Assembly (NCBI GenBank): GCA_964525295.1
Contig: CAZGEO010000001.1
Span: 504,662-568,661, forward strand
Direction of reading: 5' to 3'
DNA length: 64,000 bases
DNA from: an uncultured Candidatus Saccharibacteria bacterium
GTDB lineage: Bacteria > Patescibacteriota > Dojkabacteria > GCA-002793355
The notes under the pieces were generated by a model. It was not told the DNA's origin, did no database searches, and saw nothing but the letters and a program-made list of their open reading frames with translations. A program made the translations under genes and the position numbers. This document shows positions 11,567 to 57,847 of this stretch, in pieces. Positions within the stretch are counted from its first letter, which is position 1, and the number at the start of each line of letters is the position of its first letter.

Positions 11567-11597
11567 ATCTCTTTGGGTATCCTGATATAATTCACCA

Positions 11598-11933
11598 ATG
11601 ACACCGTTTTTGGGGCAAATAACAACTTTACCATTCAGTGCGCAAACGATGCCTATTATTGATGGTGTTCTTGATTTATCTACTGAACCAGGAGCTTTTG
11701 TCACTTGGGGGCTTGCTGCTGGTGTCGGTCTTGGTAGTGGTATCGCCCTGATTCTAGTTACCCTTGGCGCATACAAAATTCTTACTAGTGGTGGAGATCC
11801 GTCAAAAGTAAAAGATGGCAAAGATCAAATACAAAATGCCATTATTGGGTTACTTCTCATTATTCTATCTTTTGCGATTGTTAGCACAATATTTAACCTT
11901 TTAGGGTTAGGCTCAATAATTAAATTTGGTTAA
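11598..11933 (+). CDS. T4SS pilin-like small membrane protein
   Basis: SGGDPSKVKDGKDQIQNAIIGLLLIILSFAIV core with two TM helices. Confidence 0.65.
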   Translation: MTPFLGQITTLPFSAQTMPIIDGVLDLSTEPGAFVTWGLAAGVGLGSGIALILVTLGAYKILTSGGDPSKVKDGKDQIQNAIIGLLLIILSFAIVSTIFNLLGLGSIIKFG

Positions 11934-11939
11934 AGAACA

Positions 11940-12248
11940 ATGAACGGATTTCTTGCGACCTCATATACAATTAAACCTCCTCCAGGAGTTCCTACTTCGA
12001 TTACGGTGTGGGGCGTTACAAATAATGCATTAACGGCGATATTAGCTCTCGCTGCTGTTGGCGTTGTAATCACATTTGTTTATGCAGGAATTTCATTCAT
12101 TATGAGTCATTCTGACCCTGGTAAGATTAAGGGAGCTCAAGCAATGATGACTAATGCAGCAATTGGATTTGTAATTATCGTCGCTGCATTCTTTATTCTG
12201 CAATTAATCAACTTCGCCATTACTGGTCAAACTATTGGCGGTATTTAA
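11940..12248 (+). CDS. T4SS pilin-like small membrane protein
   Basis: SHSDPGKIKGAQAMMTNAAIGFVIIVAAFFIL core, tandem paralog. Confidence 0.65.
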   Translation: MNGFLATSYTIKPPPGVPTSITVWGVTNNALTAILALAAVGVVITFVYAGISFIMSHSDPGKIKGAQAMMTNAAIGFVIIVAAFFILQLINFAITGQTIGGI

Positions 12249-12254
12249 TCTTTC

Positions 12255-12602
12255 ATGAAAACAATGATGCTATCAATTTTTCAAAAAGCCTTTGCTTTTG
12301 GGGTAAATGTTATCGGAAATCCTTCTGTGCCTTCAGGGTATATTAAATCTAATGAAGGGGCCGAAAGAATTAGTTCCGCTCTAAGCGTCATATTTGTATT
12401 AACTGCCATTACGGCCGTATTTACTATTATGTGGGCAGGTTTTGCCTATATAACGAGTACAGGTGATCCAGGTAAGATTAAGCAGGCAATGAGTACCCTG
12501 CAATGGGCTGTTGTAGGTTTGATCATCTCAGGTCTAGGTTATCTCATCGTTTCTATTATTGCCGGAATCATGGGAATCAATAGTCTTGAATTGCCGTTCT
12601 AG
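12255..12602 (+). CDS. T4SS pilin-like small membrane protein
   Basis: STGDPGKIKQAMSTLQWAVVGLIISGLGYLIV core, tandem paralog. Confidence 0.65.
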   Translation: MKTMMLSIFQKAFAFGVNVIGNPSVPSGYIKSNEGAERISSALSVIFVLTAITAVFTIMWAGFAYITSTGDPGKIKQAMSTLQWAVVGLIISGLGYLIVSIIAGIMGINSLELPF

Positions 12603-12676
12603 TTACTAATTACAATCTATCCAATCAATTTCTCTTTGTTTGAGCTTTTTTTTGGGGAAGATTGTGATCAGACACT

Positions 12677-12705
12677 TTGTTCAAAGTAAAAATTTAAGGT
12701 ATAAT
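12677..12705 (+). promoter_or_regulatory. Sigma70-like promoter TTGTTC-17-TATAAT upstream of the DUF4870 gene
   Basis: Exact 17-nt spacer. TATAAT lies at 12700-12705, 28 nt before the ATG at 12734. Confidence 0.5.
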
Positions 12706-12733
12706 GCACCATTAAGTTAAACTGTTCACTCAC

Positions 12734-13105
12734 ATGGCAGAAGTCGTCGAAACAAAGCCAGTTGCAACCGAATCAGCAGCATCAACTGTTGATAGCAACG
12801 CAAAATTAATGGCAGCAATTGCATGGTTCTTTGCACCAATTGCATCTGTCGTATTCATCGTTCTTGATAACTACAAGAAAGATAAATATGTTCAATTCCA
12901 TGCTTGGCAATCATTAGCATTCGGTATTGCAAACATCGTTGTTTCATTCGTTTTAGGTTGGACTTGTATTCTTCCACTTGCAATGTTTGTTGTTGCAATC
13001 GTTGGAATTATCAAGGCATTCCAAGGTGAAATGTGGAAGCTTCCAGTTATTGGTGACTGGGCAGAACAACAGGCAAATAGCACTGTTGCAAGCGCAAGCA
13101 AATAG
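12734..13105 (+). CDS. DUF4870-family small membrane protein
   Basis: Motif YVQFHAWQSLAFGI with two or three TM helices. Confidence 0.65.
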   Translation: MAEVVETKPVATESAASTVDSNAKLMAAIAWFFAPIASVVFIVLDNYKKDKYVQFHAWQSLAFGIANIVVSFVLGWTCILPLAMFVVAIVGIIKAFQGEMWKLPVIGDWAEQQANSTVASASK

Positions 13106-13139: not shown

Positions 13140-14756
13140 TTATTGTTGGTTGCGCTGCGTAGCAGCGCAACTTTCTATGGAGAGGTGGCCGAGTGGCTGA
13201 AGGCACCTCACTGCTAACGAGGCAAGGATGAAAATCCTTCCCGGGTTCGAATCCCGGCCTCTCCGCCAGTTGTTTGTTATTCGGACTTCCCGAATCTTTA
13301 TTAGTTGAGCAACCACAGGGTTGTATTCAACTCGCACAATTTGTTTATTATCAACGTAAATTCCTTCAAAAAACATTCTCAAATACTTTCTTTTTAGTGT
13401 TGCATCGGCTTTTATATAGCTTGAGAAGATATTTTCAGATAATGACAGTATGCTATCGAGAATCTTTACTTTGTCGGTATGGTCATTCTGAATACTCGCC
13501 AAATCACTCATAGCAACGGATAGCTCATCTTTTAACCTCATATAAATATCCGTAAATTCATCGCTAGATACAATCCTATCCATTCTGTCATCTTCGGCGT
13601 TTTTCATGCGTGTTTTAATCTTCGCAATCCTGTTCTTAATGATTTTTTCTTCTTCTGATTCAGTTTCTCGTACTTCTGCAAGGATTGATTTTGCGGTTTT
13701 AATAACATCTTTCTTAAAGTCTTCCGTAAACTCAATCTTCTTGAATTCTTCGGATACTAACTGCTCTAGTACTTCCATACGGACATAGTTTTTTGAGCAG
13801 TTTTTGCTCTTTTTTCTGCTTTTGCATCCAAAGTAAAAGAATTCCTGTTGTTTTCCGTTTAGGTATTTCTTGATTTTCTGCTCTCCAACAAGTCTTGAAC
13901 CACAGTTACAATAAACATGACCTCTAAGCATGAAATTATGCGTTCTATCACGAGTTCCTTTCACCTTGCGAATATCGAGTAATTGCTGAACAGTATCAAA
14001 TAACTGCTTTGTTATGATTGGTTCATGCTTTCCTTTGTGTAGTTCGCCTTTCCAGTCAAAATCTCCATAATAAATGGGGTTTCTTAACATTCGTGATACT
14101 GCACTTCTTGATATTGGTTTACTCTCTGTTGAAAGCATACCTTTCTTTTGGAGTGTTTCCGTTAAAGAGGTTATAGAATGATCACCACTTGCAAAGAGCT
14201 GAAAGGCGTATAAAACGAGTTTTGCTACATCGGGTACTGGTCTTATATATCTTTTGTGTTTCTCTCCATAATTTTCATATCCGATGGGTGCAAATGTTGG
14301 CCACCAACCATTCTTTATCTTTTGAGAAACACCTTTTTTGACTTCAAAACCGAGATTAGCAGAATAAAACTGTGCTTGAGCCGACATTATTCCCATTAAG
14401 AATTGGTCTGCTGGGTTATCATCGTTGAAATTCTCCGATACTGACATGAGTTTTACTTTTTTGTCATTGAGAATCTTCTTGATAGTCCAAAAATCAGCCA
14501 TATCACGAGATAACCTATCAGACTTATGGATAATAAGTCCATCTACTTCATGTTCTGATATAAAAGAGATCATTTCAAGAAGTGCAGGTCTATCTGCTGT
14601 TCGTGCTGATTTCCCTGCATCTTCAAATTCTTTTACGACTACATATCCGTTAGCTTTCGCAAATTCGTTACATTTTTCACGCTGAAAAGGTAGCGATAAA
14701 TCATGCTTTGCCTGTTCATCTGTGGATACTCTCGTGTATATGACTGCTGTTTTCAT
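13140..14756 (-). CDS. Large serine recombinase (resolvase/invertase N-domain + recombinase domain + zinc-ribbon); the frame continues antisense across the whole tRNA-Ser gene
   Basis: N-terminal YTRVSTDEQ with the catalytic Ser, and DRLSRD. Cys pairs lie in the C-terminal region. The last ~43 codons are the reverse complement of the tRNA. Confidence 0.8.
   Translation of the reverse strand: MKTAVIYTRVSTDEQAKHDLSLPFQREKCNEFAKANGYVVVKEFEDAGKSARTADRPALLEMISFISEHEVDGLIIHKSDRLSRDMADFWTIKKILNDKKVKLMSVSENFNDDNPADQFLMGIMSAQAQFYSANLGFEVKKGVSQKIKNGWWPTFAPIGYENYGEKHKRYIRPVPDVAKLVLYAFQLFASGDHSITSLTETLQKKGMLSTESKPISRSAVSRMLRNPIYYGDFDWKGELHKGKHEPIITKQLFDTVQQLLDIRKVKGTRDRTHNFMLRGHVYCNCGSRLVGEQKIKKYLNGKQQEFFYFGCKSRKKSKNCSKNYVRMEVLEQLVSEEFKKIEFTEDFKKDVIKTAKSILAEVRETESEEEKIIKNRIAKIKTRMKNAEDDRMDRIVSSDEFTDIYMRLKDELSVAMSDLASIQNDHTDKVKILDSILSLSENIFSSYIKADATLKRKYLRMFFEGIYVDNKQIVRVEYNPVVAQLIKIREVRITNNWRRGRDSNPGRIFILASLAVRCLQPLGHLSIESCAATQRNQQ
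13150..13176 (+). terminator. Perfect 9-bp inverted repeat TTGCGCTGC-gta-GCAGCGCAA followed by CTTTCT; possible intrinsic terminator between the DUF4870 gene and tRNA-Ser
   Basis: The palindrome is read directly in the sequence. The U tract is weak, and the hairpin also lies inside the 3' tail of the recombinase reading frame. Confidence 0.35.
13179..13268 (+). tRNA. tRNA-Ser (anticodon GCU) with long variable arm and encoded CCA
   Basis: Acceptor GGAGAGG/CCTCTCC, anticodon loop CUGCUAA (U33, GCU, A37), variable-arm hairpin AAGGATGAAAATCCTT, T-arm CCGGGTTCGAATCCCGG, discriminator G + CCA. Confidence 0.85.
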
Positions 14757-14913
14757 TTTAGGCTTTATTAGGTTTCAATTTAGCTTTTCGCATAGCTTTC
14801 ATTTCCCTTATCATGGCGTAGTAATAATCCTTTTGTGCGTTCACAAAATTTTGGATAAATAAATCGACTGGTTTTAATTTCTTTTTCATATTGTATTAGT
14901 GTTAATAAATAAA

Positions 14914-15023
14914 AAAGGGCGACTCGTTGGACACAACTCTGTATCACAGAATTGTACGAATCGCCCTTTACATCATTTAAACCTAAATGACTAAGGTCTG
15001 TGATACGATTAAGTTGTGTCCAG
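14914..15023. repeat. Two interleaved imperfect inverted repeats upstream of the recombinase gene: AAAGGGCGA/TCGCCCTTT and TTGGACACAAC..GTATCACAGA/TCTGTGATAC..GTTGTGTCCAG
   Basis: Read directly in the sequence. Candidate recombinase-binding or att-like or operator site. The 85-aa track ORF 14780..15037 here is probably spurious. Confidence 0.5.
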
Positions 15024-16001
15024 TTATATCTTACCATAGTTTTGTTTTTCTGTTAATTTTTCTACCTCCTTTTTTATAAAATTAAGTAAATTGAAGTTTT
15101 CGGCGTTCATATTGAGAAATTCTGTACTAAATCCGTTTTGCTCAAAGGTCGCATAATCAATAAAAAGAAATCTATCCTTTTGCAAAAAGTCATCTACAAC
15201 ATAATCAGACATACTGCGAATATCATCTGCCATTGTTACCCCCTTTAAAACAACATTTTTGAAGTTCATACTAGCATGACTCCAACTCCACTGACCTGTA
15301 TATTCAGGCTCAAATACAACAAGGTTTTTAAGCCTTTCTCTTGTGCTTTCGGTGATAAACAGGATATTCGGGTAAGTGTTTACTTTTTGTTGTTTGAGTT
15401 GATCAAAATATTCAAAGTATTTCATGTACTTAACCGCAACATCTTTTGAATACTCTGTTCCTCTGTCGTATTCAATCCAAAATGAAAAGACAATGTTTTC
15501 TATTTGAATTTCAACTTCTGCATCAGGCATTACATATCTTTTGATAATCCTGCCCGATGATGTGTTGCGAAACTGATATTCATACCTTGTAAAATGGTCA
15601 CCTGTAAACTTTCTTAATATTAGGTTGTGTTTTTGGCACTCCCGAAGCAAAAGCAAATACAAATTAGCGACTTTTACTGTATGCTCTAAAGCAAAGAAAT
15701 TCACACCAGTTAGCCTTTCAGGACAATTAATAGAATCCTCACTCACACCTGTACCAGTAGCCAGTTGTTTTGCCCCAAGTCGTGATAAAAATATGATTTT
15801 GGCATTGTTGGTATAGTAGGTCGTTCTAATTAATCCATGCTCCCTTAATCTGTTTACTGTTCTACTAACTGCTTGATAACTTCCGTATAACTTCTTCTCC
15901 AATAAAATCTTAGTCAAAACTTGAAGCGGTAAAAATCTAAAACTATTAACTATCCCTAATATCTGAATATCATTGTACTTTGCAATATAACTTTCTTTCA
16001 T
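15024..16001 (-). CDS. Replication-relaxation family protein (plasmid-type, wHTH N-terminus)
   Basis: N-terminal wHTH (LTKILLEKKLYGSYQAVSRTVNRLREHGLIRT) and a PDAEVEI...FWIEYDRGTE motif typical of the Replication-relaxation family. Confidence 0.55.
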   Translation of the reverse strand: MKESYIAKYNDIQILGIVNSFRFLPLQVLTKILLEKKLYGSYQAVSRTVNRLREHGLIRTTYYTNNAKIIFLSRLGAKQLATGTGVSEDSINCPERLTGVNFFALEHTVKVANLYLLLLRECQKHNLILRKFTGDHFTRYEYQFRNTSSGRIIKRYVMPDAEVEIQIENIVFSFWIEYDRGTEYSKDVAVKYMKYFEYFDQLKQQKVNTYPNILFITESTRERLKNLVVFEPEYTGQWSWSHASMNFKNVVLKGVTMADDIRSMSDYVVDDFLQKDRFLFIDYATFEQNGFSTEFLNMNAENFNLLNFIKKEVEKLTEKQNYGKI

Positions 16002-16033
16002 AATAAAAATAACTAAAAAATTAAATAAAAAAG

Positions 16034-16196
16034 TAAGGTCTGTCGATCACACACTTTTCACAGAACTTAATGTGTAACACACACACATTAATCGTTGTCG
16101 AGGGAGTGATTGGGTGGAAGGCATTAGGAAACGCAGTTTCGCCTTCCACCCAATCAGTCACGAGGTTCTGTAAAAGTGCGACAGACCGTAACTTTC
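16034..16196. repeat. Nested inverted-repeat (cruciform-capable) region: outer arms GGTCTGTCG..CACTTTTCACAGAAC / GTTCTGTAAAAGTGCGACAGACC, palindrome TTAATGTGT-aacac-ACACATTAA, inner perfect 13-bp IR TTGGGTGGAAGGC / GCCTTCCACCCAA
   Basis: Read directly in the sequence. It is located just downstream of the Rep-like gene inside the element. Candidate element origin, oriT or a structured RNA. Confidence 0.55.
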
Positions 16197-16286
16197 GTGT
16201 TTGACAACATGGTGAGAAACTGGATTCATAGAAACGCCCTTTTCGGTAGGATACATTCAACATTTAATCAATCATGGTTTTCATAG

Positions 16287-17075
16287 TTAAAATTTAGATT
16301 TTTCTAAGAATTTAGCTCTCATTGTTTCAAGTTTTGACAGTTGCTCTTTGCGTTTTCGTTTCTCCTGTAAATCTTTGAGAGTTTTAACAAACAACCCTGC
16401 TGGGTTTGAGAGTGGTTTTGTTCCATCAACTTGAGCAGTGCGAATTTGAGTTCTTGTGAAAATTAAAGCATCTGTAACATCATCGGAATTAACAATTCCT
16501 TTGTTCTTTTGGCTGATTAGCTTTTGGTAGTATTTAATGCTTTTAAGGTAGTTTAGCTCTTTAGCGATTTCTACTGCTTCTTCTGAAAAAGATTTAAAAT
16601 CATCGTTTAACGTTAACTTATTATTTTTAATCTTTTCTTCTTCAACTTTATATTCTTTGTAGGTCAAATTTGACTCACCTTGATGTGTCAATTCTGAAAC
16701 ATCTGGTTGTTGCAATTCTGACACATCCGCAAGACTATCGAGTTTTTCAGCATATATTTCTGATATTGGCTCAAGAATATACAAGTTTGTTTTATTAAGT
16801 CCTCTTGTTTTCCAAGACATAAGCCCACGACTTCTAAGCTCATCTAATCCTCTAAATATTGAACTTCTACTTTTACCGATTGTTTCTGCTAGTTTATTTT
16901 GTCCTGGAAAACAATAATTTTTGTTCATAGCGTATTTGAGAAGTGCCAAATATACTCTAACTGCAAGATCTGAAAGCAATCTATCTTCTGTTATTAAATG
17001 ACTAATTTGAGCAAATCCGTATTGCTTTTCAAAATCTCGAAATATTACTTTGTCTTGCTTATCGGTCATTTTCAT
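16287..17075 (-). CDS. HTH-domain replication-initiator-like protein (DnaD/replisome-organizer-like N-terminus)
   Basis: The N-terminal VYLALLKYAMNKN...NKLAETIGKSRSSIFRGLDELRSRGLM resembles Rep/DnaD-type wHTH. The C-terminus is charged. Confidence 0.45.
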   Translation of the reverse strand: MKMTDKQDKVIFRDFEKQYGFAQISHLITEDRLLSDLAVRVYLALLKYAMNKNYCFPGQNKLAETIGKSRSSIFRGLDELRSRGLMSWKTRGLNKTNLYILEPISEIYAEKLDSLADVSELQQPDVSELTHQGESNLTYKEYKVEEEKIKNNKLTLNDDFKSFSEEAVEIAKELNYLKSIKYYQKLISQKNKGIVNSDDVTDALIFTRTQIRTAQVDGTKPLSNPAGLFVKTLKDLQEKRKRKEQLSKLETMRAKFLEKSKF

Positions 17076-17254
17076 GTACTTTTCGTTTTTGTAAATAACT
17101 TGCTTTTTCGAAGTAGCTCAATTGCTGATTTAGACTTCTCCTGCTTTCCAATTAATCGGCTATAACCTAATTGTTCAAAACAAAGCAAAACCCATTCACG
17201 AATGAATAGTTCTCTTGCGGTCATAGGTTTTGTTTTTTGTTTCTCTTTTGCCAT
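17072..17254 (-). CDS. Small basic hypothetical protein (60 aa), translationally coupled (ATGA overlap) to the downstream Rep-like gene
   Basis: 4-nt start/stop overlap with 16287..17075. Confidence 0.4.
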   Translation of the reverse strand: MAKEKQKTKPMTARELFIREWVLLCFEQLGYSRLIGKQEKSKSAIELLRKSKLFTKTKST

Positions 17255-17257
17255 TTT

Positions 17258-17335
17258 TAAAACAAAAAAAGAGGTCTAAATCAAAAAGGCTGTAAGCGTT
17301 ACGCTTAACAAATGACCTTTAAGACTTAGACCTCT
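17258..17335 (-). terminator. Intrinsic terminator: 10-bp perfect stem AGAGGTCTAA/TTAGACCTCT (with inner GCGTAACGC hairpin) followed on the minus strand by U7-rich tract
   Basis: Plus-strand aacaaaaaaagaggtctaa...ttagacctct, downstream of gene 17384..17599. Confidence 0.5.
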
Positions 17336-17383
17336 CTACAACTCAACTAAGGGTAGCTGAGGGCTAATATCTAAATTATTTAC

Positions 17384-17599
17384 TTATTGTTTCGTTTTTC
17401 TTTTACCTGTTTTTATATGTAATATCGTGCTATCAATTCTTTTGTTTGATATTTTAATTTCGTAAGTTCCAAATTCAAATTTTACGAATTCTTCAATGAT
17501 TTTCTTGAGATCTTCCAAGTGGATATTATAGATTTCAGGGCTTTGTAATAGCTCAAGAAATTGTTTTTTGAGTTCAAGTGATATTTTAGATTGTGTCAT
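17384..17599 (-). CDS. Hypothetical small protein (71 aa)
   Basis: 14-nt overlap with the upstream ORF and the same orientation as the element genes. Confidence 0.4.
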   Translation of the reverse strand: MTQSKISLELKKQFLELLQSPEIYNIHLEDLKKIIEEFVKFEFGTYEIKISNKRIDSTILHIKTGKRKTKQ

Positions 17600-18365
17600 A
17601 TGAGATATTTTTGTCTAATAAATCTAAATAATCCGTACTATCGCTATCTGTTTTCATAGCGTAATTCTTGTAAATCATTAACGGCTCTAAATACTCAATA
17701 CTTGATACTCCATCAACTATTGAAACTCGTTTAAAACCCTCTTGTTTGAGGTACTCGTTATCAGTACGAAGTACTGAAAAGATATTTGCTTCTTGAGTTG
17801 TTAAGTTCTTTTTAGGGATTAAAACAACATAGAATGGGTCAAGTTTTGAGTGGTAATAGTCAAATATTGTAAGTTTCCAACATGGAATTGAGACTTTTTG
17901 AGTGTATACAGTCATTTCTTCAATAACTGGGAGGGCTACAAACAGCTTTTTATTAAGTCTGAGGTTGTATAGGACTCTTTCTTCCATTGGAGTATTTTCA
18001 ACTGGTTTTGGTGGCAATTGGCTTGAAAAATAGTTATATACATGGATTCGTATTTCATCATGTTTATATCCTCGTTTAAATAATTGGTGAATGTACCATA
18101 TCATCATTGGTACTTTAATTTTGTGATAGCCTACTGTACCACCAAGAGCAGAGGTTAAGCCCATTTTCTTTGCAGAGGGAAGAAAGCTATGTCGGGAGTA
18201 GTAAATGAGTTTCTTTCTATCACATTCAATGTTCCAAGAGCTTTTTATGATTAAATCGACAACTGTATCTGAGGATAGATCGTATCTATTTGTTGTATCG
18301 GAGACTAAACCCCATTCATACATTTGTTTTACGAAGTTACTAATTGTTTTATCTAAGATATTCAT
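17586..18365 (-). CDS. Hypothetical protein (259 aa), element-encoded
   Basis: Long ORF with no recognisable motif. Confidence 0.5.
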   Translation of the reverse strand: MNILDKTISNFVKQMYEWGLVSDTTNRYDLSSDTVVDLIIKSSWNIECDRKKLIYYSRHSFLPSAKKMGLTSALGGTVGYHKIKVPMMIWYIHQLFKRGYKHDEIRIHVYNYFSSQLPPKPVENTPMEERVLYNLRLNKKLFVALPVIEEMTVYTQKVSIPCWKLTIFDYYHSKLDPFYVVLIPKKNLTTQEANIFSVLRTDNEYLKQEGFKRVSIVDGVSSIEYLEPLMIYKNYAMKTDSDSTDYLDLLDKNISYDTI

Positions 18366-18580
18366 AGTATCGAGTTAAATATATCAATGTTTGTCACTAT
18401 ACTAATATATACCACTCAAAATAGTTTGTCAATAAATTTGCTATGTTTTACACTCAAGCTCAAAACTAAGAAACTAAGTATAAATTTAAAGCTTCGCTTT
18501 CTTATTATAATGTCGTTTCAGGTAAAATTGGGTAATGTATAAGCCGATTTAATACGGGAATAATTAATTATTAAAACAAA

Positions 18581-19657
18581 ATGAATGAAGCTGTAAATAA
18601 GTATCTTGAGGAAGTACAAAGCAAGTTTAAAACTGGACACGCTAGAGAACACGCCTATCACCCAGCGTTACAAAAACTTATTGAAGATATTAATAGCTCA
18701 ATCAATGCGGTAAATGACCCAAAACAACAAAAGGTCGGTGCTCCTGATTTTGTTTTACTAAAAAGTAAAACACCTATCGGCTATGTAGAAGCAAAAGACA
18801 TAGATATTGCACTTGATAAAGAATTTAAAACAAAGAATCAATTTAACAGATATAAAGCCTCACTCAATAACTTGTGTTTTACGAATTATCTCGACTTTCA
18901 CTTTTACCTAAATGGTGAAGAAGTAGCAAAAGTTGCTATCGGAAAACTGGAAAATAACAAAATCGAAGTTTTACCAGATAATATTCCACTGCTTGAAAGC
19001 TTACTCAAGAATTTTACAACACAGAAATCTATTTCTATCAGAAGCCCGAAAGAACTTGCTTCTCTTATGGCTGAAAAAGCAAAGATGCTTAAGAATGTTG
19101 TTTATTTGTCATTAAAAGAAGAATCAGAAGTTAAAGGACAAGTTGAACAACAATACCAAGTGTTTAAGCAAATGCTTATTCATGACTTATCACTTGAACA
19201 ATACGCTGATTTATACGCTCAGACTGTTGCTTACGGAATGTTTGCGACTAGATACTACGACCCTTCTTTGGAGAACTTTAATAGAGGTGAAGCAAACAAG
19301 CTTTTGCCAAAGTCAAACCTTTTTTTGCAGAACTTCTTGAAAACTATGGAAAAGATACAAAACGAAGTGATGTCATTGTTCCTTTTACGAAACTTTCTTG
19401 GCAGAATATGACCCTAAAATGCGTAAATCAAGAGGTGTTTACTATACTCCTGAACCAGTAGTTGATTTTATCGTAAGGGCTGTTGATGACATTTTGAAAA
19501 CCTAGTTTGGAATTACTGACGAATTAGCAGATATAAGCAAGATTGAAGTTGAAAAAGAGTTACAGGGTAATAAGAAGAAGCAGAAAGTAACGGAACACAG
19601 TATTCAAGTTCTTGATCCTGCGACTGGGACAGGTATATTCCGAAATCTTGCCACCCT
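18581..19657 (+). pseudogene. N-terminal remnant (~330 aa equivalent) of a Type IIG restriction-modification / BREX PglX-like N6-adenine DNA methyltransferase; frameshift near 19395-19411, in-frame TAG at 19507-19509, truncated right after motif I
   Basis: ORF 18581..19411, then in the +1 frame YDPKMRKSRGVYYTPEPVVDFIVRAV, then TAG, then ...HSIQVLDPATGTGIF (motif I). This runs in frame into the RibB-like/E1-alpha gene, and no catalytic NPPY/DPPY region follows. Confidence 0.6.
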
Positions 19658-19682
19658 ATCTGTGTTGAGTTATACTTATGTT

Positions 19683-21269
19683 ATGTCAGAACAGATAAAA
19701 CGTATTGTTAAATCAGGCAATCCCTTTCTTATTTATCATAATTCTGAAAATGAGACGGCGTTAGTGATTCCTGCAGAATTCATGACTGAAGCAAAATATA
19801 GATTATTTCGAGAATATGCAACCTCTGATGTCGCAATGATGTTTCCTGTAGACATTGCAGAAAGTCTTGGAATCGAGTACATCTCAGACGCACTATTTCT
19901 TAGTGCAGAATACGATTCAATTGTAGATAGTGCAGTAAGAAAATCTCACGCTGGACCAACCCTCGATTTAAAAAGTGTTGAAACAGGAAGTGCTGATGCG
20001 GACAAGGTCAAGACAATAACAAGATTTGCAGAAGTTATATCTTCTCAGAACTTCACAGATTTTTTCAATGAATTCTCAATACCAGGGCATGTTAGAACTT
20101 ATCTTGCCGACCAAGATTTATTAGATGGGCGTAGTGGTCACACTGAGTTAGGTGTATACTTGTCACTTTACACACAGCTTTCAGGTGTCGTATGTATGGT
20201 GACTATTAGAGATAAGGTAACTGGAAAACCATTCAACCTTATTGAGTCGGAGCGTTTTGCAGAAAAAAATAATTACACAATCTTCTATGAGAATGATATT
20301 TTAGACCTATATAGACGGGAGTTTTTACCTTACTGTAAAGCGTCGTTTGAGCAAAAGCAAAACAAGATTATTGAAGATTATAGAAAACTACTAGATATCA
20401 GAAAGTTTGAACAAACCTTAGAAAAGTTGTTTAAAAGTCAAAAAATTCGAGGTTCCTATCATTTAGCCATTGGACAAGAGGCAACAGGAGTGGCTTTAGG
20501 TAAAGTCATTAGCTTGAAAGAAGGAGATAGCGCATTTGTAACACATAGGGGACATCATATTGCTCTCGGTTTAGGGTTAAATAGTCGAGATTTTTTCTTT
20601 GAATGTATTGGAAGTGAACAAGGTCTAAACAACGGGAGATCTGGTCCTATGCACTTTTTTTACAAGCCTAATGGATTAATAAGCGCGAATGGTATTGTAG
20701 CTGCAAATGCACCTATTGCTGCAGGTCTTGCACTGTCAAACAAGCTTAAAAATAATAATAACGTAGTTGTTAATGTTGTAGGAGAAGGCTCCTTAGATGA
20801 AGGAGTCGTGCATGAAACATTGACAGATATGAAAATATGGGGAATTCCATTGATAATACTATGTGAAAATAATTTTTATTCTCAGTCTACGGTAATTGAA
20901 AAACATTTGCCATATGAGAGAGTCACAACAGCGATGCGACAGTTTTACGGCATCAAAGTAGAAAGAATCGAAAATGGTACCGATTTAATTCATTTACAAA
21001 AAAGGCTTAATCATATTGTAGGATGGGTAAGAAAAAATAAAATGCCGGTTTTTGTTGAAATTCAAACATATCGCCAATGTGGACATTCGATGAGTGATAC
21101 TGAGCAAAGTTATATGGATCCGAGTTTAGATTCTGCTTGGCTTAGAAAAGACCCGGTAAGCTTATTGAAACAGTATATTTTAAATCATAATCTTTCAAAT
21201 AACGCTGCTTTAGAAAAGATAGAATCAGAAGTTATAGAATTTTATATGAATCTAGAAACACAAGTATGA
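19683..21269 (+). CDS. Fusion protein: degenerate RibB-like (3,4-dihydroxy-2-butanone-4-phosphate synthase-like) N-domain + TPP-dependent 2-oxoacid dehydrogenase E1 alpha subunit
   Basis: The N-terminal ~200 aa align to RibB (PGHVRTYLADQDLLDGRSGHTE) but the acidic DDEDRENEGD motif is replaced by YHNSENETAL. The C-terminal E1-alpha has YHLAIGQEA, GSEQGLNNGRSGPMH and a TPP motif GEGSLDEG...ENNFY. The likely leaderless start is ATG 19683 (TATACT 6 nt upstream); the track start is 19662. Confidence 0.7.
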   Translation: MSEQIKRIVKSGNPFLIYHNSENETALVIPAEFMTEAKYRLFREYATSDVAMMFPVDIAESLGIEYISDALFLSAEYDSIVDSAVRKSHAGPTLDLKSVETGSADADKVKTITRFAEVISSQNFTDFFNEFSIPGHVRTYLADQDLLDGRSGHTELGVYLSLYTQLSGVVCMVTIRDKVTGKPFNLIESERFAEKNNYTIFYENDILDLYRREFLPYCKASFEQKQNKIIEDYRKLLDIRKFEQTLEKLFKSQKIRGSYHLAIGQEATGVALGKVISLKEGDSAFVTHRGHHIALGLGLNSRDFFFECIGSEQGLNNGRSGPMHFFYKPNGLISANGIVAANAPIAAGLALSNKLKNNNNVVVNVVGEGSLDEGVVHETLTDMKIWGIPLIILCENNFYSQSTVIEKHLPYERVTTAMRQFYGIKVERIENGTDLIHLQKRLNHIVGWVRKNKMPVFVEIQTYRQCGHSMSDTEQSYMDPSLDSAWLRKDPVSLLKQYILNHNLSNNAALEKIESEVIEFYMNLETQV

Positions 21270-22195
21270 AATATTTAGATGCTATCACGAGCTGTTTAAA
21301 GTTTGAACTATCAAAAGAGAATTTATATATTCTTGGACAGGATTTACTCAATTGGAAGGGGCGGGGTCGCTTCTTACATTCATTAATAACTGATTATAGT
21401 GACAAGATAATTGATACTCCAATTTCTGAATCCGCAACTTCAGGAATCGCAACCGGTTTAGCACTGGGAGGATTCAGAGTTATGGTGGAATATGCATTTT
21501 TAGATTTTATATTACATAGTACGGATCAAATAGTTAACAATTCGACTAAGCTTCAATTCTTTGCGGGTTCAAAACACGCCATAAATCTACCAATCGTCTA
21601 TTACTCAACGATTAATTCTGCTATGGGATATGGAGCAACTCATTCACAACCATTGGAGTATCTTTTCTGTAATATTCCTAATTTATTAACAGTTTATCCT
21701 TCCAATAGTACGGATGCTCAGTCTCTATTAAAGGAGGCTCTGAATGCCTCTTCGCCTACCCTTTTTATAAATCATAAACTACTCCACGATACTGAGGACG
21801 ATTTACCCGTAATAGATGCCGGTAAGGCACGAGTTTTTTCTCAAACTAATGATAAGTCGGAAAAGATTGTAATTGTAACTTATGGAAGATCTACTCAATT
21901 GGTTCGAGAAATTTTGACTCAACTTCCAGAACCAGTATATCATGTGGATTTAAGATATCTATCGAAATTTGATTATCAATCAATCCTTCATCCTGCAAGA
22001 AAAATAGTATTTGTAGAGGAAGGTTCTGGTGTGATTATGAAACAGCTTATTGCTGATTTAGTAACCTATTACAACTTAACCTCGAAAGATATCAGATTGA
22101 TAAGCTCAAAAGCTATGCAAATTGGTGCCGGAAGAGCACATGAAGAAATGGTCTTTGTTTCAAAGTCTGATATTTTAGATGCAATACAGTCCTAA
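21266..22195 (+). CDS. TPP-dependent dehydrogenase E1 beta subunit / transketolase-like pyrimidine-binding + C-terminal domains (divergent)
   Basis: 4-nt overlap with E1-alpha and an E1-beta-like layout (TPISESATSGIATGLALGGFRVMVEY). No E2/E3 is nearby. Confidence 0.65.
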   Translation: MKYLDAITSCLKFELSKENLYILGQDLLNWKGRGRFLHSLITDYSDKIIDTPISESATSGIATGLALGGFRVMVEYAFLDFILHSTDQIVNNSTKLQFFAGSKHAINLPIVYYSTINSAMGYGATHSQPLEYLFCNIPNLLTVYPSNSTDAQSLLKEALNASSPTLFINHKLLHDTEDDLPVIDAGKARVFSQTNDKSEKIVIVTYGRSTQLVREILTQLPEPVYHVDLRYLSKFDYQSILHPARKIVFVEEGSGVIMKQLIADLVTYYNLTSKDIRLISSKAMQIGAGRAHEEMVFVSKSDILDAIQS

Positions 22196-22713: not shown

Positions 22714-23214
22714 ATGCTACAAACCTCCGATGAACTTATAGATATAGTCAATGACAAAGACATTGTAATAGGTCAAGATTTCAAGGTAAATGTTCACGCA
22801 AAAAGTAGAGTTTTACACCGCGAAATTGGCGTACTTATCTGTGATGAAAAGGGAAGATTTTTACTGCAACAGCGAAGTTTTAAGAAGAAATTCTTTCCGG
22901 GCACCTGGAGTGTTAGTGCAGTTGGGCATGTGCCGGCAGGCATGACCCCCGAAGAAGCAGCGCACAAAGAATTATTTGAGGAGTTGGGGTTTGATACCGA
23001 ATTACAATTCATAGAAAAGCGCGTCTACGATTCGGGAGAACACTGTTCTTTTGGATATTTTTATAAAGGTCTTTGTTCAAGTGAGGTGAAAATCAAACTA
23101 GATCCAAACGAGGTTGAGCAGGCAAAATTTGTTACAAAAGAAGAATTACATCAAATGATGCACTGTGGAATCGTTGATTACCATACTGTTGAAACAATTA
23201 ACAAGTTCGGTTAA
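22714..23214 (+). CDS. NUDIX hydrolase, isopentenyl-diphosphate delta-isomerase (type 1)-like
   Basis: Nudix box GHVPAGMTPEEAAHKELFEELGF. HREIGVLICDEKGRFLLQQRSFKKKFFPGTWSVSAVGH parallels the IDI KK.WPG.W..S.CGH motif. Confidence 0.6.
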   Translation: MLQTSDELIDIVNDKDIVIGQDFKVNVHAKSRVLHREIGVLICDEKGRFLLQQRSFKKKFFPGTWSVSAVGHVPAGMTPEEAAHKELFEELGFDTELQFIEKRVYDSGEHCSFGYFYKGLCSSEVKIKLDPNEVEQAKFVTKEELHQMMHCGIVDYHTVETINKFG

Positions 23215-28552: not shown

Positions 28553-29464
28553 CTACCCTTTTGAAGCAATGCTCTCTACAGCGATAGCAGCTTCAGCAGC
28601 AGCGGTAACAAGTTGAGCGAATTTGTTTGAAGCGGTGGTACTGTCGCCGGCTGCAAGTATTCCGGGTACTGAAGTTCGTTGCTCTTTATCGACAATTATG
28701 AAACCGTGGTCGTCGAGTTGTATCCCGAGGTCGGTAGTCAGTTCAGTTATTGGTTCGTGGCCAATTTCAATAAATACACCTTGAATTGATAATTCAGTGA
28801 TAGTGCCAGAAAGAATAAGTTTTTCTACAACTTGATTGCCCGTAATTTCTTGTATTTGCGTGCTGAAATGAACTTTGATGTTACTCTTTTCTTCAAGCTT
28901 TTTTATCCAATAAGGTTCGGCTCGCAGTTTGTCGCTTCTCACTAGTAAATGGACAGTTGTGCAAAGTTCAGATAAAAATAAGGCTGCAGTTACCGCGGAA
29001 TCACCGCCACCGACTACCGCAACTTCTTTTCCTTTGAAGAATGCGCCGTCGCAGGTAGCACAGTAAGTGACGCCTTTTCCGTAAAATTCTGCCTCTCCTG
29101 TAACATGTAGCTTTTTTCGTTTCATGCCGATTGTTAAGAGAATATTCTTCGCTTTGATTTGTTCGTTTTGCTCGGTTGTAAGGGTGAATGGATATTTTTC
29201 TTCGGAATTTTTCTCAATCTTTGCAACTTTACTGTAAATTTCTTCAACACCTAGTTTGATAGTCTGTTGTTGTACTTTTTGCATGAGTTCCATGCCGGTA
29301 ATTTCCTCGAAACCAGGATAATTCCCTATTATGTGTGCTTCTGCTGTTTGTCCGCCAAAATTATCGCCGAAAATTACAGTTTTCAAACCGTAACGGGCAG
29401 CATAAATTGCACCAGTATATCCAGCAAATCCCATGCCAACAATTGCAAGATCATAATTTTTCAT
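28553..29464 (-). CDS. trxB: Thioredoxin-disulfide reductase
   Basis: FAD site YDLAIVGMGFAGYTGAIYAA, redox CATCDG, NADPH site VAVVGGGDSA. The start was moved to MKNYDL (29464); the track start 29680 adds 72 non-conserved residues. Confidence 0.85.
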   Translation of the reverse strand: MKNYDLAIVGMGFAGYTGAIYAARYGLKTVIFGDNFGGQTAEAHIIGNYPGFEEITGMELMQKVQQQTIKLGVEEIYSKVAKIEKNSEEKYPFTLTTEQNEQIKAKNILLTIGMKRKKLHVTGEAEFYGKGVTYCATCDGAFFKGKEVAVVGGGDSAVTAALFLSELCTTVHLLVRSDKLRAEPYWIKKLEEKSNIKVHFSTQIQEITGNQVVEKLILSGTITELSIQGVFIEIGHEPITELTTDLGIQLDDHGFIIVDKEQRTSVPGILAAGDSTTASNKFAQLVTAAAEAAIAVESIASKG

Positions 29465-29492
29465 ATGAATAATTATAACATACCCCCGGGGG

Positions 29493-30131
29493 GTGTCGTG
29501 CGTGCTATACTCTTCTATGAAGGAATTGTTGTCAAAAGTTAGTATTATTTTGGTCGGAGTAATTGCACTTTTTGTCGGTTTTCTCGTTGGTAGATATCTA
29601 TTCCCTATGCAGAAATCTGACGTTCCTGAGGTAAGTACGCAAGCGATATTGCAAAGTGTTTCTGCGCAAGGTTTTCTCATTACGCAAACGGTAATTTCTA
29701 GTCAAGACGTTACCTATACTGTAGATCAAGGCTCAGATTGGTCTAACTTCTGGTGGGGGCATGAAATTACTGCGGAAGCGACAATGCAATCTCATATAGG
29801 TATTGACTTATCACAAATGAGTGAGAAAGATGTAGTTGCTGATTCTCGCACGAAAACAGTTTGTTTTAGATATCCAACTCCTGAAATTAAGGAGACTGTA
29901 ATTATCGGAGATATTGAAGTGATGACAAAAAGTGGAATTTTGAAAAAATTGCTTGCTTCAGACACCAATAATGATTACAACATTGCACTTGCACAGTTAA
30001 AAACGAATGCGCAAAAAGCTGCGGCAACTCTACCGAATATGTCTGGTGAAGCATTTGCTAACGCCGATAAGGTTTTGAGCTTTATTGTTTCCGAAACAGG
30101 TTATCGTGTCGCGCCAGAGTGCAGAAAATAG
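29493..30131 (+). CDS. Hypothetical membrane-anchored protein (N-terminal TM, extracytoplasmic domain; DUF4230-like?)
   Basis: ORF with a single TM and no clear motif. Confidence 0.45.
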   Translation: MSCVLYSSMKELLSKVSIILVGVIALFVGFLVGRYLFPMQKSDVPEVSTQAILQSVSAQGFLITQTVISSQDVTYTVDQGSDWSNFWWGHEITAEATMQSHIGIDLSQMSEKDVVADSRTKTVCFRYPTPEIKETVIIGDIEVMTKSGILKKLLASDTNNDYNIALAQLKTNAQKAAATLPNMSGEAFANADKVLSFIVSETGYRVAPECRK

Positions 30132-57726: not shown

Positions 57727-57846
57727 GATAAAGCATGAGGGAGGTAAAGAATTAAAGCAGTAAAACGGTAAAACACGGAAGCACTAGAGCATTAAAGCAT
57801 TAGAGTACTAAAGCGCTAAAGCAAGAAAGTAGGAAAGTTATAAAGC
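57727..57846. repeat. Octanucleotide tandem array (about 15 x NNTAAAGC-like units); its 3' end is the left boundary of the 5079-bp tandem duplication
   Basis: ...ggtaaaga attaaagc agtaaaac ggtaaaac acggaagc actagagc attaaagc attagagt actaaagc gctaaagc aagaaagt aggaaagt tataaagc. Confidence 0.7.
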
Positions 57847-57847
57847 G

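Follow-up and report, generated by a model that had tools for sequence, protein, structure and literature searches.

Two adjacent genes on the forward strand of the window (the whole stretch of DNA analysed, 64 kb) encode a fusion of a variant RibB domain (hereafter RibB*) to an E1-alpha subunit and, separately, an E1-beta subunit (Table 1). The start of the fusion at ATG 19683 matches the N-termini of its homologues in the alignment; an in-frame GTG lies at 19662. That the N-terminus is RibB-like, as the initial annotation had proposed, was confirmed by Pfam PF00926 (DHBP_synthase), which matched along nearly its whole profile (positions 5-189 of 191; E 3.7e-21; 75.9 bits versus a gathering threshold of 26.4), and by PDB 1pvw (HMMER, E 2.6e-21). 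In an AlphaFold2 model of the fusion (mean pLDDT 80.6, with low confidence in the linker at aa 215-222), Foldseek matched the N-terminal domain to M. jannaschii DHBPS (1pvy/1pvw; TM 0.83-0.84, normalised to the target) and the C-terminal domain to human PDH E1-alpha (1ni4; TM 0.74). The E1-beta gene begins, as also stated previously, with a 4-nt overlap (ATGA, 21266-21269); its match to Transketolase_C (PF02780) was weak, 19.3 bits being below the gathering threshold of 25.9. Against the PADLOC defence models, the fusion gave only a 12-bit noise match and E1-beta no match. The best promoter match upstream of the cassette is a weak candidate, as sigma-70-like sites are no more numerous in the region than in shuffled sequence.

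Table 1. Features of the RibB*-E1 cassette (window coordinates).
Feature	Position	Strand	Evidence
Sigma-70-like promoter match TTGCCA-17-TATACT, best upstream of cassette	19648..19676	+	Consensus match alone; within RM-pseudogene remnant
Fusion gene, variant RibB-linker-E1-alpha	19683..21269	+	ORF, 528 aa + TGA stop; Pfam PF00926 + PF00676; homologues of same architecture
Variant RibB (DHBP-synthase-fold) domain, aa 7-207	19701..20303	+	Pfam, PDB 1pvw, Foldseek
Acidic loop 1, shortened: Y18-H-N-S-E-N-E-T-A-L27	19734..19763	+	HMMER alignment to 1pvw, MAFFT, counts
D49, subfamily-specific Asp at canonical Leu53, two residues ahead of lost Cys55	19827..19829	+	Asp in 14/15 variants vs Leu/Ile in 85 canonical
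Lid loop T101-G102-S103-A-D105-A-D107-K108	19983..20006	+	Alignment counts
P134-G135-H136-V137-R138: PGH (= Mj H147), then subfamily-specific Arg/Lys	20082..20096	+	H 26/27; R/K 15/15 vs P/F/H canonical
R150-S-G152-H153-T154-E155 (= Mj R161, G163, H164 (metal ligand), T165, E166)	20130..20147	+	R161, H164, T165 27/27
T174 in place of canonical Glu185	20202..20204	+	Glu 84/85 canonical; Ser/Thr 27/27 variants
Inter-domain linker, aa 208-236	20304..20390	+	Variable alignment columns; pLDDT < 50 at aa 215-222
E1-alpha (TPP-binding) domain, aa 237-517	20391..21233	+	Pfam PF00676 E1_dh E 8e-50; 1ni4 E 2.8e-41; Foldseek
TPP-Mg motif G367-E368-G369 ... E395-N396-N397	20781..20873	+	Alignments
E1-alpha active-site His loop Y463-R-Q-C-G-H468-S-M-S-D472	21069..21098	+	Aligned to human YRYHGHSMSD; conserved in clade
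E1-beta gene, 309 aa	21266..22195	+	Transket_pyr PF02779 E 3.7e-18; NF006667 128 bits; PDB 1ik6 + 3exe_B alignments

The E1 pair retains all hallmark motifs of its family, namely HLxxGQEA, G[DE]G...NN, and YRxxGHS, and in the beta-subunit DTPIxE and HSQ, which there read DTPISE (E55, the cofactor-activating Glu) and THSQ (H126) in alignments with the human and P. aerophilum E1 proteins. The GEG of the alpha-subunit had been singled out as a departure from the GDG of the TPP-Mg motif. It is no defect: the protein fits the pattern G-[DE]-G-x(24-27)-NN, human BCKDH E1-alpha natively contains YFGEGAASEGD...NNGYAIST, and GEG and GDG interchange among the RibB*-linked E1-alphas. The latter form one clade (neighbour-joining tree without support values). 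From the intact motifs, E1-alpha/beta is predicted to be a TPP enzyme capable of catalysis, in a clade of its own. It resembles heterotetrameric E1 (human PDH, 1NI4/3EXE; G. stearothermophilus, 1W85; BCKDH, 1DTW) in the motifs of both subunits, at 29-36% identity and a TM of 0.74, and in both PDB and NCBIfam its nearest relatives are PDH E1, but the PDH cutoffs were missed (TIGR03182, 227 versus 393.85 bits; NF006667, 128 versus 321 bits). Unlike these E1s, the clade lacks adjacent E2/E3, and its alpha N-terminus is short, with RibB* either fused to it or placed ahead of it; beside the cofactor/substrate pocket, GGS is changed to [AS]G[PNAI], AQ to AN, and Y[AG]M to Y[AS]Q (Met to Gln in NNxY[AS]Q). 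DXS shares the TPP superfamily, and weak local DXP_synthase_N matches fell in the TPP-binding region; however, DXS is a single three-domain chain as opposed to the split alpha/beta found here, and membership was rejected at 28-38 bits versus cutoffs of ~395-466 (for TIGR00204, 18.5-34 versus 465.95).

The active site of RibB* was compared, in the residue numbering of M. jannaschii (Mj) RibB, between 27 variants and 85 canonical RibBs for retained and lost residues, and between 15 variants and the same 85 for gained ones. The metal ligands of RibB are Glu26 and His164 in Mj, corresponding to Glu39 and His154 in V. cholerae (PMC9305975). The initial annotation quoted PGHV (P134-V137), GHTE (G152-E155), and YHNSENETAL (Y18-L27) correctly, but the view that the last of these replaces the Mg-binding acidic cluster is not borne out in that simple form, as E22 and E24 correspond to E26 and E28, and H153 to H164. 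The ligand pair E22 and H153 is present in 27/27 members. What the loop has undergone is a two-residue deletion, together with loss of any equivalent of D21, R25, and D30. Across the variants, E26, E28, T112, G113, R161, H164, and T165 are invariant (27/27 each), D118 is kept in 25 (Glu in the other two), and H147 in 26, homologue P0182 having Asn at this position. The lid loop of the window protein corresponds to T112, G113, I114 (now Ser), D116, D118, and R119 (now Lys).

Conversely, D30 (85/85 in canonical RibBs), E185 (84/85), D21 (82/85), and R25 (81/85) are each found in 0/27 variants, and C55 is also gone. Of these, Glu185, a second-sphere base, is said to start enolisation in canonical RibB. 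The substitutes are themselves fixed, with Ala or Ser at position 30 (Ala26 in the window protein), Ser or Thr at 185 (Thr174), and Lys at 119; the position of D21 is taken by H, S, N, E, L, or Q, and R25 is absent. The losses are uniform in both bacteria and archaea and are accompanied by gains specific to the subfamily: Asp at Mj 53 (14/15), Ser at 114 (15/15), and Arg or Lys at 149 (15/15). Judged from strand periodicity, the gained residues appear to cluster on strands bearing active-site residues.

The variants constitute a sharply bounded paralogue subfamily of 27 sequences. When 1.84 billion representatives were searched exhaustively with HMMER, the fusions ranked first and the standalone variants next (E 1e-46 to 1e-27), all of them above canonical RibBs, and the gap in bit score (≥216 versus ≤164) falls exactly where the residue signature changes. 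The RibB domain of the window also missed the equivalog cutoffs (TIGR00506, 78.3 versus 177.45 bits; NF004437, 65.4 versus 262 bits). Fused and standalone forms share 25-32% identity, and the invariant columns are nearly all active-site residues. Pairwise identities are equal for the RibB* and E1-alpha domains, and dN/dS was comparable, at 0.077 and 0.100 for the former versus 0.037 and 0.136 for the latter in the same pairs. Fixed losses, fixed gains, and low dN/dS together form the pattern expected of an enzyme that has taken on a new function, or of a module binding a specific ligand, rather than of decay. The initial annotation had considered the domain degenerate and probably non-catalytic; the loss of D21, R25, D30, C55, and E185 agrees with this, whereas the retained metal, phosphate, and lid residues, the low dN/dS, and the newly fixed residues speak against it.

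RibB* thus still resembles canonical DHBP synthase in fold (TM 0.83; ~27% identity), in the ligands E26 and H164, in the conserved R161 and T165 adjoining the latter, in catalytic-strand H147, and in the lid loop T112-G113...D118, but differs from it by the deletion in loop 1, the replacement of five residues in every member, the new conserved Asp, Ser, and Arg/Lys, scores below the NCBIfam RibB cutoffs, and its linkage to E1. Because the canonical invariants are gone and residues of its own have been gained, RibB* is not expected to be a DHBP synthase; on these sequence comparisons it is most likely a neofunctionalised paralogue of the archaeal-type enzyme. A RibB domain fused to another enzyme is already known from RibBA, which was among the weaker matches (PF00926 + PF00925); there, however, the canonical RibB residues are present and the partner is GCH II, a riboflavin-pathway enzyme like RibB itself and not a TPP enzyme.

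The fusion is genuine and conserved. At least seven independent assemblies, from Dojkabacteria and a UGA=Gly lineage, contain it too, with 50-57% identity. The frameshift mis-join that had been named as a possible refutation was not found: the architecture is identical and continuous in the homologues P0002-P0010, which come from independent assemblies and are 51-56% identical in sequence, and that of the code-25 organism maintains a continuous ORF with 14 in-frame TGA codons at glycine positions. In the window and at six further loci (L001/2, L003/4, L005, L006, L010, and L024) the fusion is followed by E1-beta amid otherwise unrelated neighbours. Unfused variants are found directly ahead of E1-alpha at 6/6 loci with usable context (P0028, P0030, P0032, P0034, P0186, and P0182), E1-beta follows wherever the contig continues, and stop and start codons mostly overlap. 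Named hosts of this form are Micrarchaeia/Micrarchaeota, and locus L022 has a clearly archaeal gene neighbourhood. This three-gene operon is the strongest evidence obtained and lies beyond what a single sequence could reveal. At the loci examined, RibB* was in every case accompanied by E1-alpha/beta and in none by rib genes, which, by analogy with Rosetta-stone type reasoning, suggests that the partners work together. The architecture was not described in the literature searched. It marks an uncharacterised enzyme module, probably one that processes sugar phosphates, common to tiny-genome CPR bacteria and DPANN archaea, and the earlier suggestion of a new module, or of a TPP enzyme put to another use, pointed in the right direction.

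As had been noted, E2, E3, and lipoyl genes are missing from the vicinity. Among ~60 ORFs of the window (essentially all of ≥100 aa), no Pfam match to 2-oxoacid_dh, Biotin_lipoyl, Pyr_redox_dim, or lipoate ligase was obtained, and the 8-10 kb around related loci (or the sequence up to the contig end) also contained no E2, E3, or lipoyl gene. The one Pyr_redox_2 protein of the window (28553-29680) is a thioredoxin reductase (TIGR01292, 318 bits). Riboflavin genes (ribA, ribD, ribH, and ribE) were likewise absent from the window and from the same flanks, and no third conserved gene naming a pathway was present at the loci examined.

The best overall explanation, to which we assign a probability of somewhat less than one half (about 0.45), is that a neofunctionalised RibB and a competent TPP enzyme act jointly on a phosphorylated keto-sugar, for which we infer complex formation, substrate, order of steps, and products as follows. 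The two genes would give rise to a three-part enzyme of RibB*, E1-alpha, and E1-beta, most likely assembled as (RibB*-alpha)2-beta2 because RibB and E1 are both two-fold symmetric assemblies. RibB* would still build a platform binding Mg2+ and sugar phosphate, E1-alpha/beta would operate without neighbouring E2/E3, and a substrate of the ribulose-5-phosphate or 1-deoxy-ketose type would encounter the Mg2+ site and then the TPP site in succession. In the preferred version, RibB* would perform only the early steps, enolisation and C1 dehydration, turning Ru5P into the 1-deoxy-2,3-diketone-5-phosphate; E1 with TPP would then cut the C2-C3 bond of the diketone, yielding hydroxyethyl-TPP (leaving as acetaldehyde or acetyl) and 3-phosphoglycerate. 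Such a conversion would be redox-neutral, would require no lipoyl-E2/E3, and would channel nucleoside-derived pentose into lower glycolysis. As Glu185 is missing, the early RibB steps would need a substitute base, for which Asp49 is a guess.

AcoA/AcoB (acetoin:DCPIP oxidoreductase) are E1-alpha/beta subunits that cleave the methyl-ketol 3-hydroxy-2-butanone, and reportedly 1,2-diketones, at C2-C3 via TPP; DHBP and the diketone intermediate of RibB are phosphorylated analogues of these substrates. AcoAB differs in being encoded with acoC (E2) and acoL (E3) and in having no known RibB partner; acoC- or acoL-like genes did not adjoin the cassette in the window or the related-locus flanks, and membership in the acetoin dehydrogenases is suggested solely by the automatic AcoA label given to homologue P0007 by JGI. 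Canonical RibB proceeds via a 2,3-diketone that is hydrated at C3 (PMC9305975), and single mutations in the lid loop of E. coli RibB, or in PDH E1, each yield DXP in vivo (PMC3424233, PMC6734295), which places both families near 1-deoxy-ketose-phosphate chemistry. In the "nDXS" RibB (gain-of-function changes G108S and D113G in the lid loop; PMC3424233) and in AceE (PDH E1) suppressor mutants, small changes thus redirect the enzymes to 1-deoxy-pentulose-phosphate formation (PMC3424233, PMC6734295), and the fixed changes of RibB* from Ile/Val114 to Ser and from Arg119 to Lys flank the same loop. However, these are laboratory mutants of canonical enzymes acting separately, and RibB* keeps the equivalents of G108 and D113 while changing other positions. 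Taken to its most specific form, that is, a new two-site (Mg2+ and TPP) enzyme for the non-oxidative cleavage of pentulose 5-phosphate to a C2 unit and 3-phosphoglycerate via RibB's transient 1-deoxy-2,3-diketone, which originated in DPANN archaea and became fused after its transfer to CPR bacteria, the proposal is frankly doubtful. If true, it would constitute a phosphoketolase-like "pentose shunt" by which symbionts that scavenge nucleosides could burn ribose with neither a complete pentose-phosphate pathway nor an E2/E3 complex.

Retention of binding residues with loss of catalytic ones (D21, R25, D30, C55, and E185) is also expected of a ligand-sensing pseudoenzyme, and typical of pseudoenzymes in general. 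RibB* could therefore be a non-catalytic Mg2+/sugar-phosphate sensor or dimerisation scaffold that governs an E1 acting on pyruvate, another 2-oxo acid, or an acyloin, a reading close to the regulatory or ligand-binding role suggested in the initial annotation. TPP enzymes with separate small regulatory subunits are generally known (e.g., the AHAS small subunit), RibB is an obligate dimer and so could clamp alpha2-beta2, and H147N is tolerated in P0182. We nevertheless regard this as rather unlikely, because the replaced positions are fixed (A/S at 30, S/T at 185, K at 119), as are the new Asp, Ser, and Arg/Lys on strands with active-site residues, because metal ligands and lid loop are invariant from bacteria to archaea despite 25-32% identity, and because the orphan E1 would still be without an acceptor for its product. 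Even less probable is the ordinary case, a 2-oxoacid or acetoin dehydrogenase E1 with E2/E3 encoded elsewhere and RibB* as an accessory. The kinship to PDH E1, the AcoA label, and the retained active-site His residues for reductive acylation would all fit, and PDH complexes have been reported in 25 genomes, ~52% of Micrarchaeota (PMC5864196, PMC8407392), so that in archaeal hosts E2/E3 may lie elsewhere. Yet E2/E3/lipoyl genes are absent both from the 64-kb window and from the 8-10 kb (or up to the contig end) flanking related loci, the PDH equivalog cutoffs were clearly missed (227 versus 394; 128 versus 321), and the E1-alphas form a clade of their own in which the active-site motifs are changed. 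E1 genes, moreover, normally cluster with E2, and the obligatory RibB* partner would be left unexplained; quite improbable is thus our estimate.

The two sites might also act in the reverse, biosynthetic order: E1 as a DXS-like carboligase would join hydroxyethyl-TPP (from pyruvate) to an aldehyde phosphate, and RibB* would then catalyse an Mg2+-dependent 1,2-shift or fragmentation of the resulting 1-deoxy-ketose phosphate or acyloin. This is the logic of AHAS followed by KARI and of DXS followed by DXR, pairs of a TPP ligase and a metal-dependent ketol rearrangement that recur in metabolism. The loss of E185 with the metal platform kept, the weak DXP_synthase_N matches on E1-alpha, and the DXP formed by single mutants of both E. 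coli AceE and RibB (PMC3424233) are in line with it. The archaeal hosts, however, rely on the mevalonate route, and no requirement for DXP-like products is known in them (compare the GHMP/MVD-like gene in L022), no reductase or downstream gene is conserved next to the operon, and DXS scores are far under cutoff (28 versus 395 bits), whereas the gene order RibB*-alpha-beta is neutral; we consider this order improbable. Largely refuted, finally, is the notion that RibB* is a true DHBP synthase serving riboflavin synthesis that just happens to be fused to, or co-transcribed with, an unrelated E1, or that an assembly error or a frameshift produced the fusion. Although the Pfam gathering score is passed and some vitamin inventories of Micrarchaeota include RibB (PMC8407392), all 27 variants lack four to five residues whose conservation across the 85 canonical RibBs is 95-100%, TIGR00506 gave 78 bits against a cutoff of 177, and no rib gene stands beside any locus examined; the artefact reading is ruled out by the continuous ORFs in independent assemblies, that of the code-25 organism included.

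Several other genes were noted in the surroundings of the cassette. L015 encodes RuBisCO and three dNK genes, L017 a PRPP synthetase, and L003 and L005 an RNR; Nudix genes occur in the window and in L022, where the GHMP/MVD-like gene also lies near the cassette, and an Fe-ADH is encoded 11 kb downstream of it in the window. The recurrence of nucleotide and pentose genes nearby hints, if weakly, at a theme of the genomic context.

The N-terminal part of the fusion protein (aa 7–207) matched nearly the whole Pfam profile of DHBP synthase (PF00926 DHBP_synthase; 75.9 bits vs a gathering score of 26.4), and aa 237–517 matched the E1-alpha family (PF00676 E1_dh; E 8e-50). The E1-beta gene begins with an ATG lying within an ATGA, which overlaps the TGA stop of the fusion gene. 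NCBIfam returned the same families, all with scores far under the equivalog cutoffs (ribB, 78 vs 177 bits; PDH E1-alpha, 227 vs 394 bits; E1-beta, 128 vs 321 bits). The AlphaFold2 model of the fusion (mean pLDDT 80.6) comprised two well-folded domains and a low-confidence linker (aa 215–222); when this model was searched with Foldseek, the N-domain resembled M. jannaschii DHBPS (1pvy/1pvw; TM 0.83–0.84) and the C-domain human PDH E1-alpha (TM 0.74). The RibB-like character that the initial annotation had ascribed to the N-terminal region was thus borne out by both domain search and structure prediction, and the motifs it had listed (YHNSENETAL, PGHV, GHTE, and GEG) were all found in place. A scan for promoters and terminators returned no more sites than were found in shuffled sequence.

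Coordinates of the features of the window (nucleotide positions)
Feature	Coordinates	Strand	Basis or remark
Variant RibB–E1-alpha fusion gene, 528 aa	19683-21269	+	ORF call
E1-beta gene, 309 aa	21266-22195	+	ORF call; Transket_pyr match, Transketolase_C match weak
Nudix protein gene	22714-23214	+	directly 3′ of E1-beta
Type IIG restriction-methyltransferase pseudogene	18581-19682		profile match in two pieces
Probable integrated element beside tRNA-Ser(GCT)	13140-19400		upstream of cassette; gene content, low GC
Large serine recombinase gene	13140-14756	-	overlaps tRNA-Ser
tRNA-Ser(GCT)	13179-13268		overlapped by serine recombinase gene
Replic_Relax protein gene	15024-16001		within integrated element
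HTH_36 protein gene	16287-17075		within integrated element
Pyr_redox_2 gene	28553-29680		thioredoxin reductase
Fe-ADH gene	33514-34662
T4SS-pilin gene (PF18895)	5360-5719	-	small paralogue
T4SS-pilin genes (PF18895)	11598-11933, 11940-12248, 12255-12602	+	small paralogues, three in tandem
Isoleucyl-tRNA-synthetase-like gene, 1,135 aa	40098-43505	-	NUDIX domain inserted at aa 224–336
Class II tRNA synthetase gene, Asp/Asn/Lys type	61084-62883	+	C-terminal fused tRNA_edit (YbaK-like) domain
Direct repeat, 1,113 nt	57809-58921, 62888-64000		exact; second copy reaches window end
HhH-GPD glycosylase gene	57872-58516, 62951-63595		duplicated by the direct repeat

The same architecture was present in nine further proteins with 51–56% identity to the window fusion, their labeled hosts being Candidatus Dojkabacteria and one MAG labeled Saccharibacteria; it does therefore occur in other CPR genomes. 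At every retrieved locus (L001/L002, L003/L004, L005, L006, L010, and L024), the fusion gene was followed by E1-beta, and the remaining neighbors varied from locus to locus. An origin of the fusion by frameshift or mis-joining, which the initial annotation had named as a possible objection, was ruled out, as the same unbroken ORF is kept in independent assemblies, including that of a host using genetic code 25. This code was deduced from in-frame TGA codons, of which the fusion gene (P0004; locus L024) contains 14, all at positions occupied by Gly in relatives (alignment A1) and including both glycines of the GDG motif. The source organism of P0004 has 26.6% GC, and all four genes on the 4-kb contig of L024 (CAZZEA010000094.1, GCA_964652925.1) contain many in-frame TGA codons; the same code is used by Gracilibacteria/Absconditabacteria. 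The L024 fusion protein has been deposited with TGA translated as Trp.

When a profile of the N-domain was run exhaustively with HMMER against 1.84 billion representatives, the fusions ranked on top; standalone proteins ∼215 aa in length followed, at E 1e-46 to 1e-27, ahead of the ordinary RibBs. A second search added a dozen more standalone variants, and all named hosts were Candidatus Micrarchaeia/Micrarchaeota. Exhaustive searching was required: a word-indexed search with the N-domain alone gave only one match. A metagenome scan with the archaeal alignment recovered only one locus, and a genome scan three. In all six cases with usable context (P0028, P0030, P0032, P0034, P0186, and P0182), the standalone variant was directly followed by a separate E1-alpha gene (304–326 aa) and, wherever the contig runs on, by E1-beta, with stop and start codons mostly overlapping. 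One of these loci, L022, lies among genes for eIF-6, L18Ae, L31e, S19e, TFIIE, and Rpb6 and is unmistakably of archaeal origin. As standalone variant RibB adjoins E1-alpha and E1-beta, the CPR fusion and the three-gene operon of DPANN are two forms of one system. This pattern is classic Rosetta-stone evidence, which points to variant RibB and E1 as functional partners whose partnership is probably physical.

To compare active sites, 114 RibB-type sequences were aligned and mapped to M. jannaschii numbering, and residues were counted separately for canonical (n = 85) and variant (n = 27) sequences. The split between both groups was absolute and matched a break in bit score (at least 216 vs at most 164 bits). 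Retained in all variants were E26, E28, T112, G113, R161, H164, and T165, and nearly always D118 (25/27, the other two having Glu), H147 (26/27), and E166 (26/27). E26 and H164 correspond to the metal ligands Glu39 and His154 of the V. cholerae enzyme (PMC9305975), and T112 and D118 to the lid-loop pair Thr108 and Asp114 (PMC5228156). None of the 27 variants contained D30 (Ala/Ser instead; 85/85 in canonical RibB), E185 (Ser/Thr instead; 84/85), D21 (82/85), or R25 (81/85). Cys55 was mostly absent, R119 was replaced by Lys in 26 variants, and the acidic loop was two residues shorter. Glu185 is the residue that Steinbacher et al. 2003 reportedly found to contact the substrate C3-H and to be irreplaceable. 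Specific to the variants were Asp at position 53 (14/15; D49 of the window protein), Ser at position 114 (15/15; S103), and Arg/Lys two residues past the catalytic-strand His (15/15; R138). Fused and standalone variants share only 25–32% identity, and the invariant columns are nearly all active-site positions. Among the fusions, pairwise identities were 50–91% for the RibB domain and 52–97% for E1-alpha, and dN/dS was 0.077 and 0.100 vs 0.037 and 0.136, respectively. Judged from these residues and rates, the site is best understood as remodeled and under purifying selection, not as a relic, and variant RibB is clearly not predicted to be a DHBP synthase. In P0182 (loci L020, L022, and L023), Asn replaces the otherwise invariant His147 (PGNF vs PGH), and the operon is intact on three independent contigs.

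The hallmarks of the E1 part are complete, both in E1-alpha (HLxxGQEA, the TPP-Mg motif, and YRxxGHSMSD) and in E1-beta (DTPISE and THSQ). The initial annotation had pointed out GEG in place of GDG; GEG is indeed present, but it is not a defect and was ruled out as the mark of a dead E1, as human BCKDH E1-alpha carries it as well (YFGEGAASEGD...NNGYAIST) and the RibB-linked clade alternates between GDG (L015, L017, L021, and P0004) and GEG (the remaining members examined). When a rough NJ tree was built, E1-alphas from the fused and standalone forms grouped into one clade, which shares changes by the cofactor pocket (GxGGSMH to Gx[AS]G[PNAI]MH, NGIVxAQ to NGIVxAN, and NNxY[AG]M to NNxY[AS]Q).

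Canonical RibB converts Ru5P via an enediol to a 1-deoxy-2,3-diketone, hydrated at C3, before a 1,2-shift and deformylation take place (PMC9305975, PMC13151069). Single mutations in the lid loop of E. coli RibB (G108S or D113G), or single mutations in PDH E1 (AceE), each result in formation of DXP (PMC3424233, PMC6734295). The fixed changes Ser114 and Lys119 of variant RibB flank the lid loop holding those E. coli sites. What emerges is a predicted metal- and sugar-phosphate-binding platform fused or coupled to a seemingly competent TPP enzyme. We consider it probable (∼0.6) that variant RibB and E1 are a functional catalytic pair acting on a phosphorylated keto-sugar. The Mg2+ and TPP sites may in turn process a 1-deoxy-ketose or diketone phosphate. 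In the preferred version, variant RibB would halt at the diketone stage and E1 would then cut between C2 and C3, yielding a C2 unit and 3-phosphoglycerate. The E1-type enzyme AcoAB cleaves methyl-ketols and, reportedly, also 1,2-diketones. The cleavage proposed for variant RibB and E1 would be redox-neutral, would not need E2/E3, and would suit nucleoside-scavenging symbionts; as a specific chemistry it is doubtful.

That variant RibB is instead a pseudoenzyme sensing sugar phosphates is somewhat unlikely. It accords with the catalytically degenerate RibB domain of the initial annotation, a claim favored by the loss of the four canonical residues and opposed by the retained metal ligands and lid loop and by the low dN/dS. 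The two parts might also act in reverse order, E1 as a ligase first and variant RibB as a rearranging enzyme second, which we regard as unlikely. An ordinary dehydrogenase complex with E2/E3 encoded elsewhere is more improbable still: searches of the 64-kb window and of the regions flanking all related loci yielded no domain of the E2, lipoyl, E3, or lipoate-ligase type (the initial annotation had noted no E2/E3 or lipoyl genes nearby), and the Pyr_redox_2 gene encodes a thioredoxin reductase. PDH complexes are described for roughly half of Micrarchaeota (PMC5864196, PMC8407392); the archaeal hosts may therefore encode E2/E3 elsewhere in their genomes. A true RibB, set against the absolute split of active-site residues, or an artefact, set against the independent assemblies, is barely credible. 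A role of variant RibB and E1 as a defense system was rejected for lack of PADLOC support.

RibB and E1 belong to the best-studied enzyme families, and nothing on their association or functional link was found in the literature searched. Both folds are known; new are the subfamily, the rebuilt site, and the obligatory pairing with E1. The genetic link is strict (fusion in CPR, translationally coupled operon in Micrarchaeota) and is accompanied by coordinated rebuilding of the RibB active site. The pair represents a testable new enzyme system in two radiations of least-understood metabolism, and another instance of archaea-to-bacteria sharing among episymbionts. The names found in public records are "DHBP synthase" and "TPP-dependent enzyme"; these labels, the former in DPANN and the latter, generic one in Dojkabacteria, are probably mis-assigned, which bears on inferences about vitamin auxotrophy and PDH in these lineages. 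Variant RibB may also serve as a natural experiment on truncating or redirecting the multi-step RibB reaction, relevant to engineered nDXS routes.

Gene context lends weak support to the proposed two-site mechanism: L017 carries a PRPP synthetase gene, L003 and L005 each carry ribonucleotide reductase genes, Nudix genes are present both in L022 and in the window, and the window also has an Fe-ADH gene. In L015/L016 (Micrarchaeia MAGs), a RuBisCO large-subunit gene (1572-2855) lies ∼5 kb upstream of the operon and three tandem deoxynucleoside-kinase paralogues (10576-12962) lie directly downstream; the surroundings may be a nucleoside-salvage neighborhood. The Nudix protein encoded 3′ of E1-beta matched type-1 IPP isomerase best in NCBIfam (∼75 bits, under the cutoffs of 106–127) and, weakly, PADLOC PDC-S07 (28 bits). 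It has Val at what we take to be the site of the catalytic Cys of E. coli IDI (SAVGH vs SVCGH). The protein is IDI-like by similarity; its assignment as an IPP isomerase, and with it an isoprenoid link, was rejected because of the score and this Val.

Upstream, the ORF at 18581-19411 covers positions 2–261 of the 1,096 of the restriction-methyltransferase profile (E 7e-58). Past a frameshift and an internal stop, a remnant (GVYYTP...VLDPATGTGIF) covers positions 301–367 (E 3e-25), and ∼730 codons are gone. As this remnant reads in frame into the fusion ATG and ends exactly there, the 5′ edge of the cassette seems to be a recombination or deletion breakpoint. The adjacent element, which also holds unknown ORFs, has a GC content of 0.30–0.36 compared with 0.38–0.41 elsewhere; that of the cassette, a possible cargo of the element, is intermediate, and no att-type direct repeat was found around element or cassette. 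The closest relative being in a code-25 lineage and neighborhoods differing everywhere suggest movement of the cassette from one episymbiont genome to another; equally possible is that a deletion joined the edge of the island to a resident cassette.

Elsewhere in the window, four small T4SS-pilin paralogues are encoded, the NUDIX insertion in the isoleucyl-tRNA-synthetase-like protein is unusual for a class I aaRS, and the two copies of the direct repeat, spaced by 5,079 nt, stem from segmental duplication or else are an artefact of assembly.
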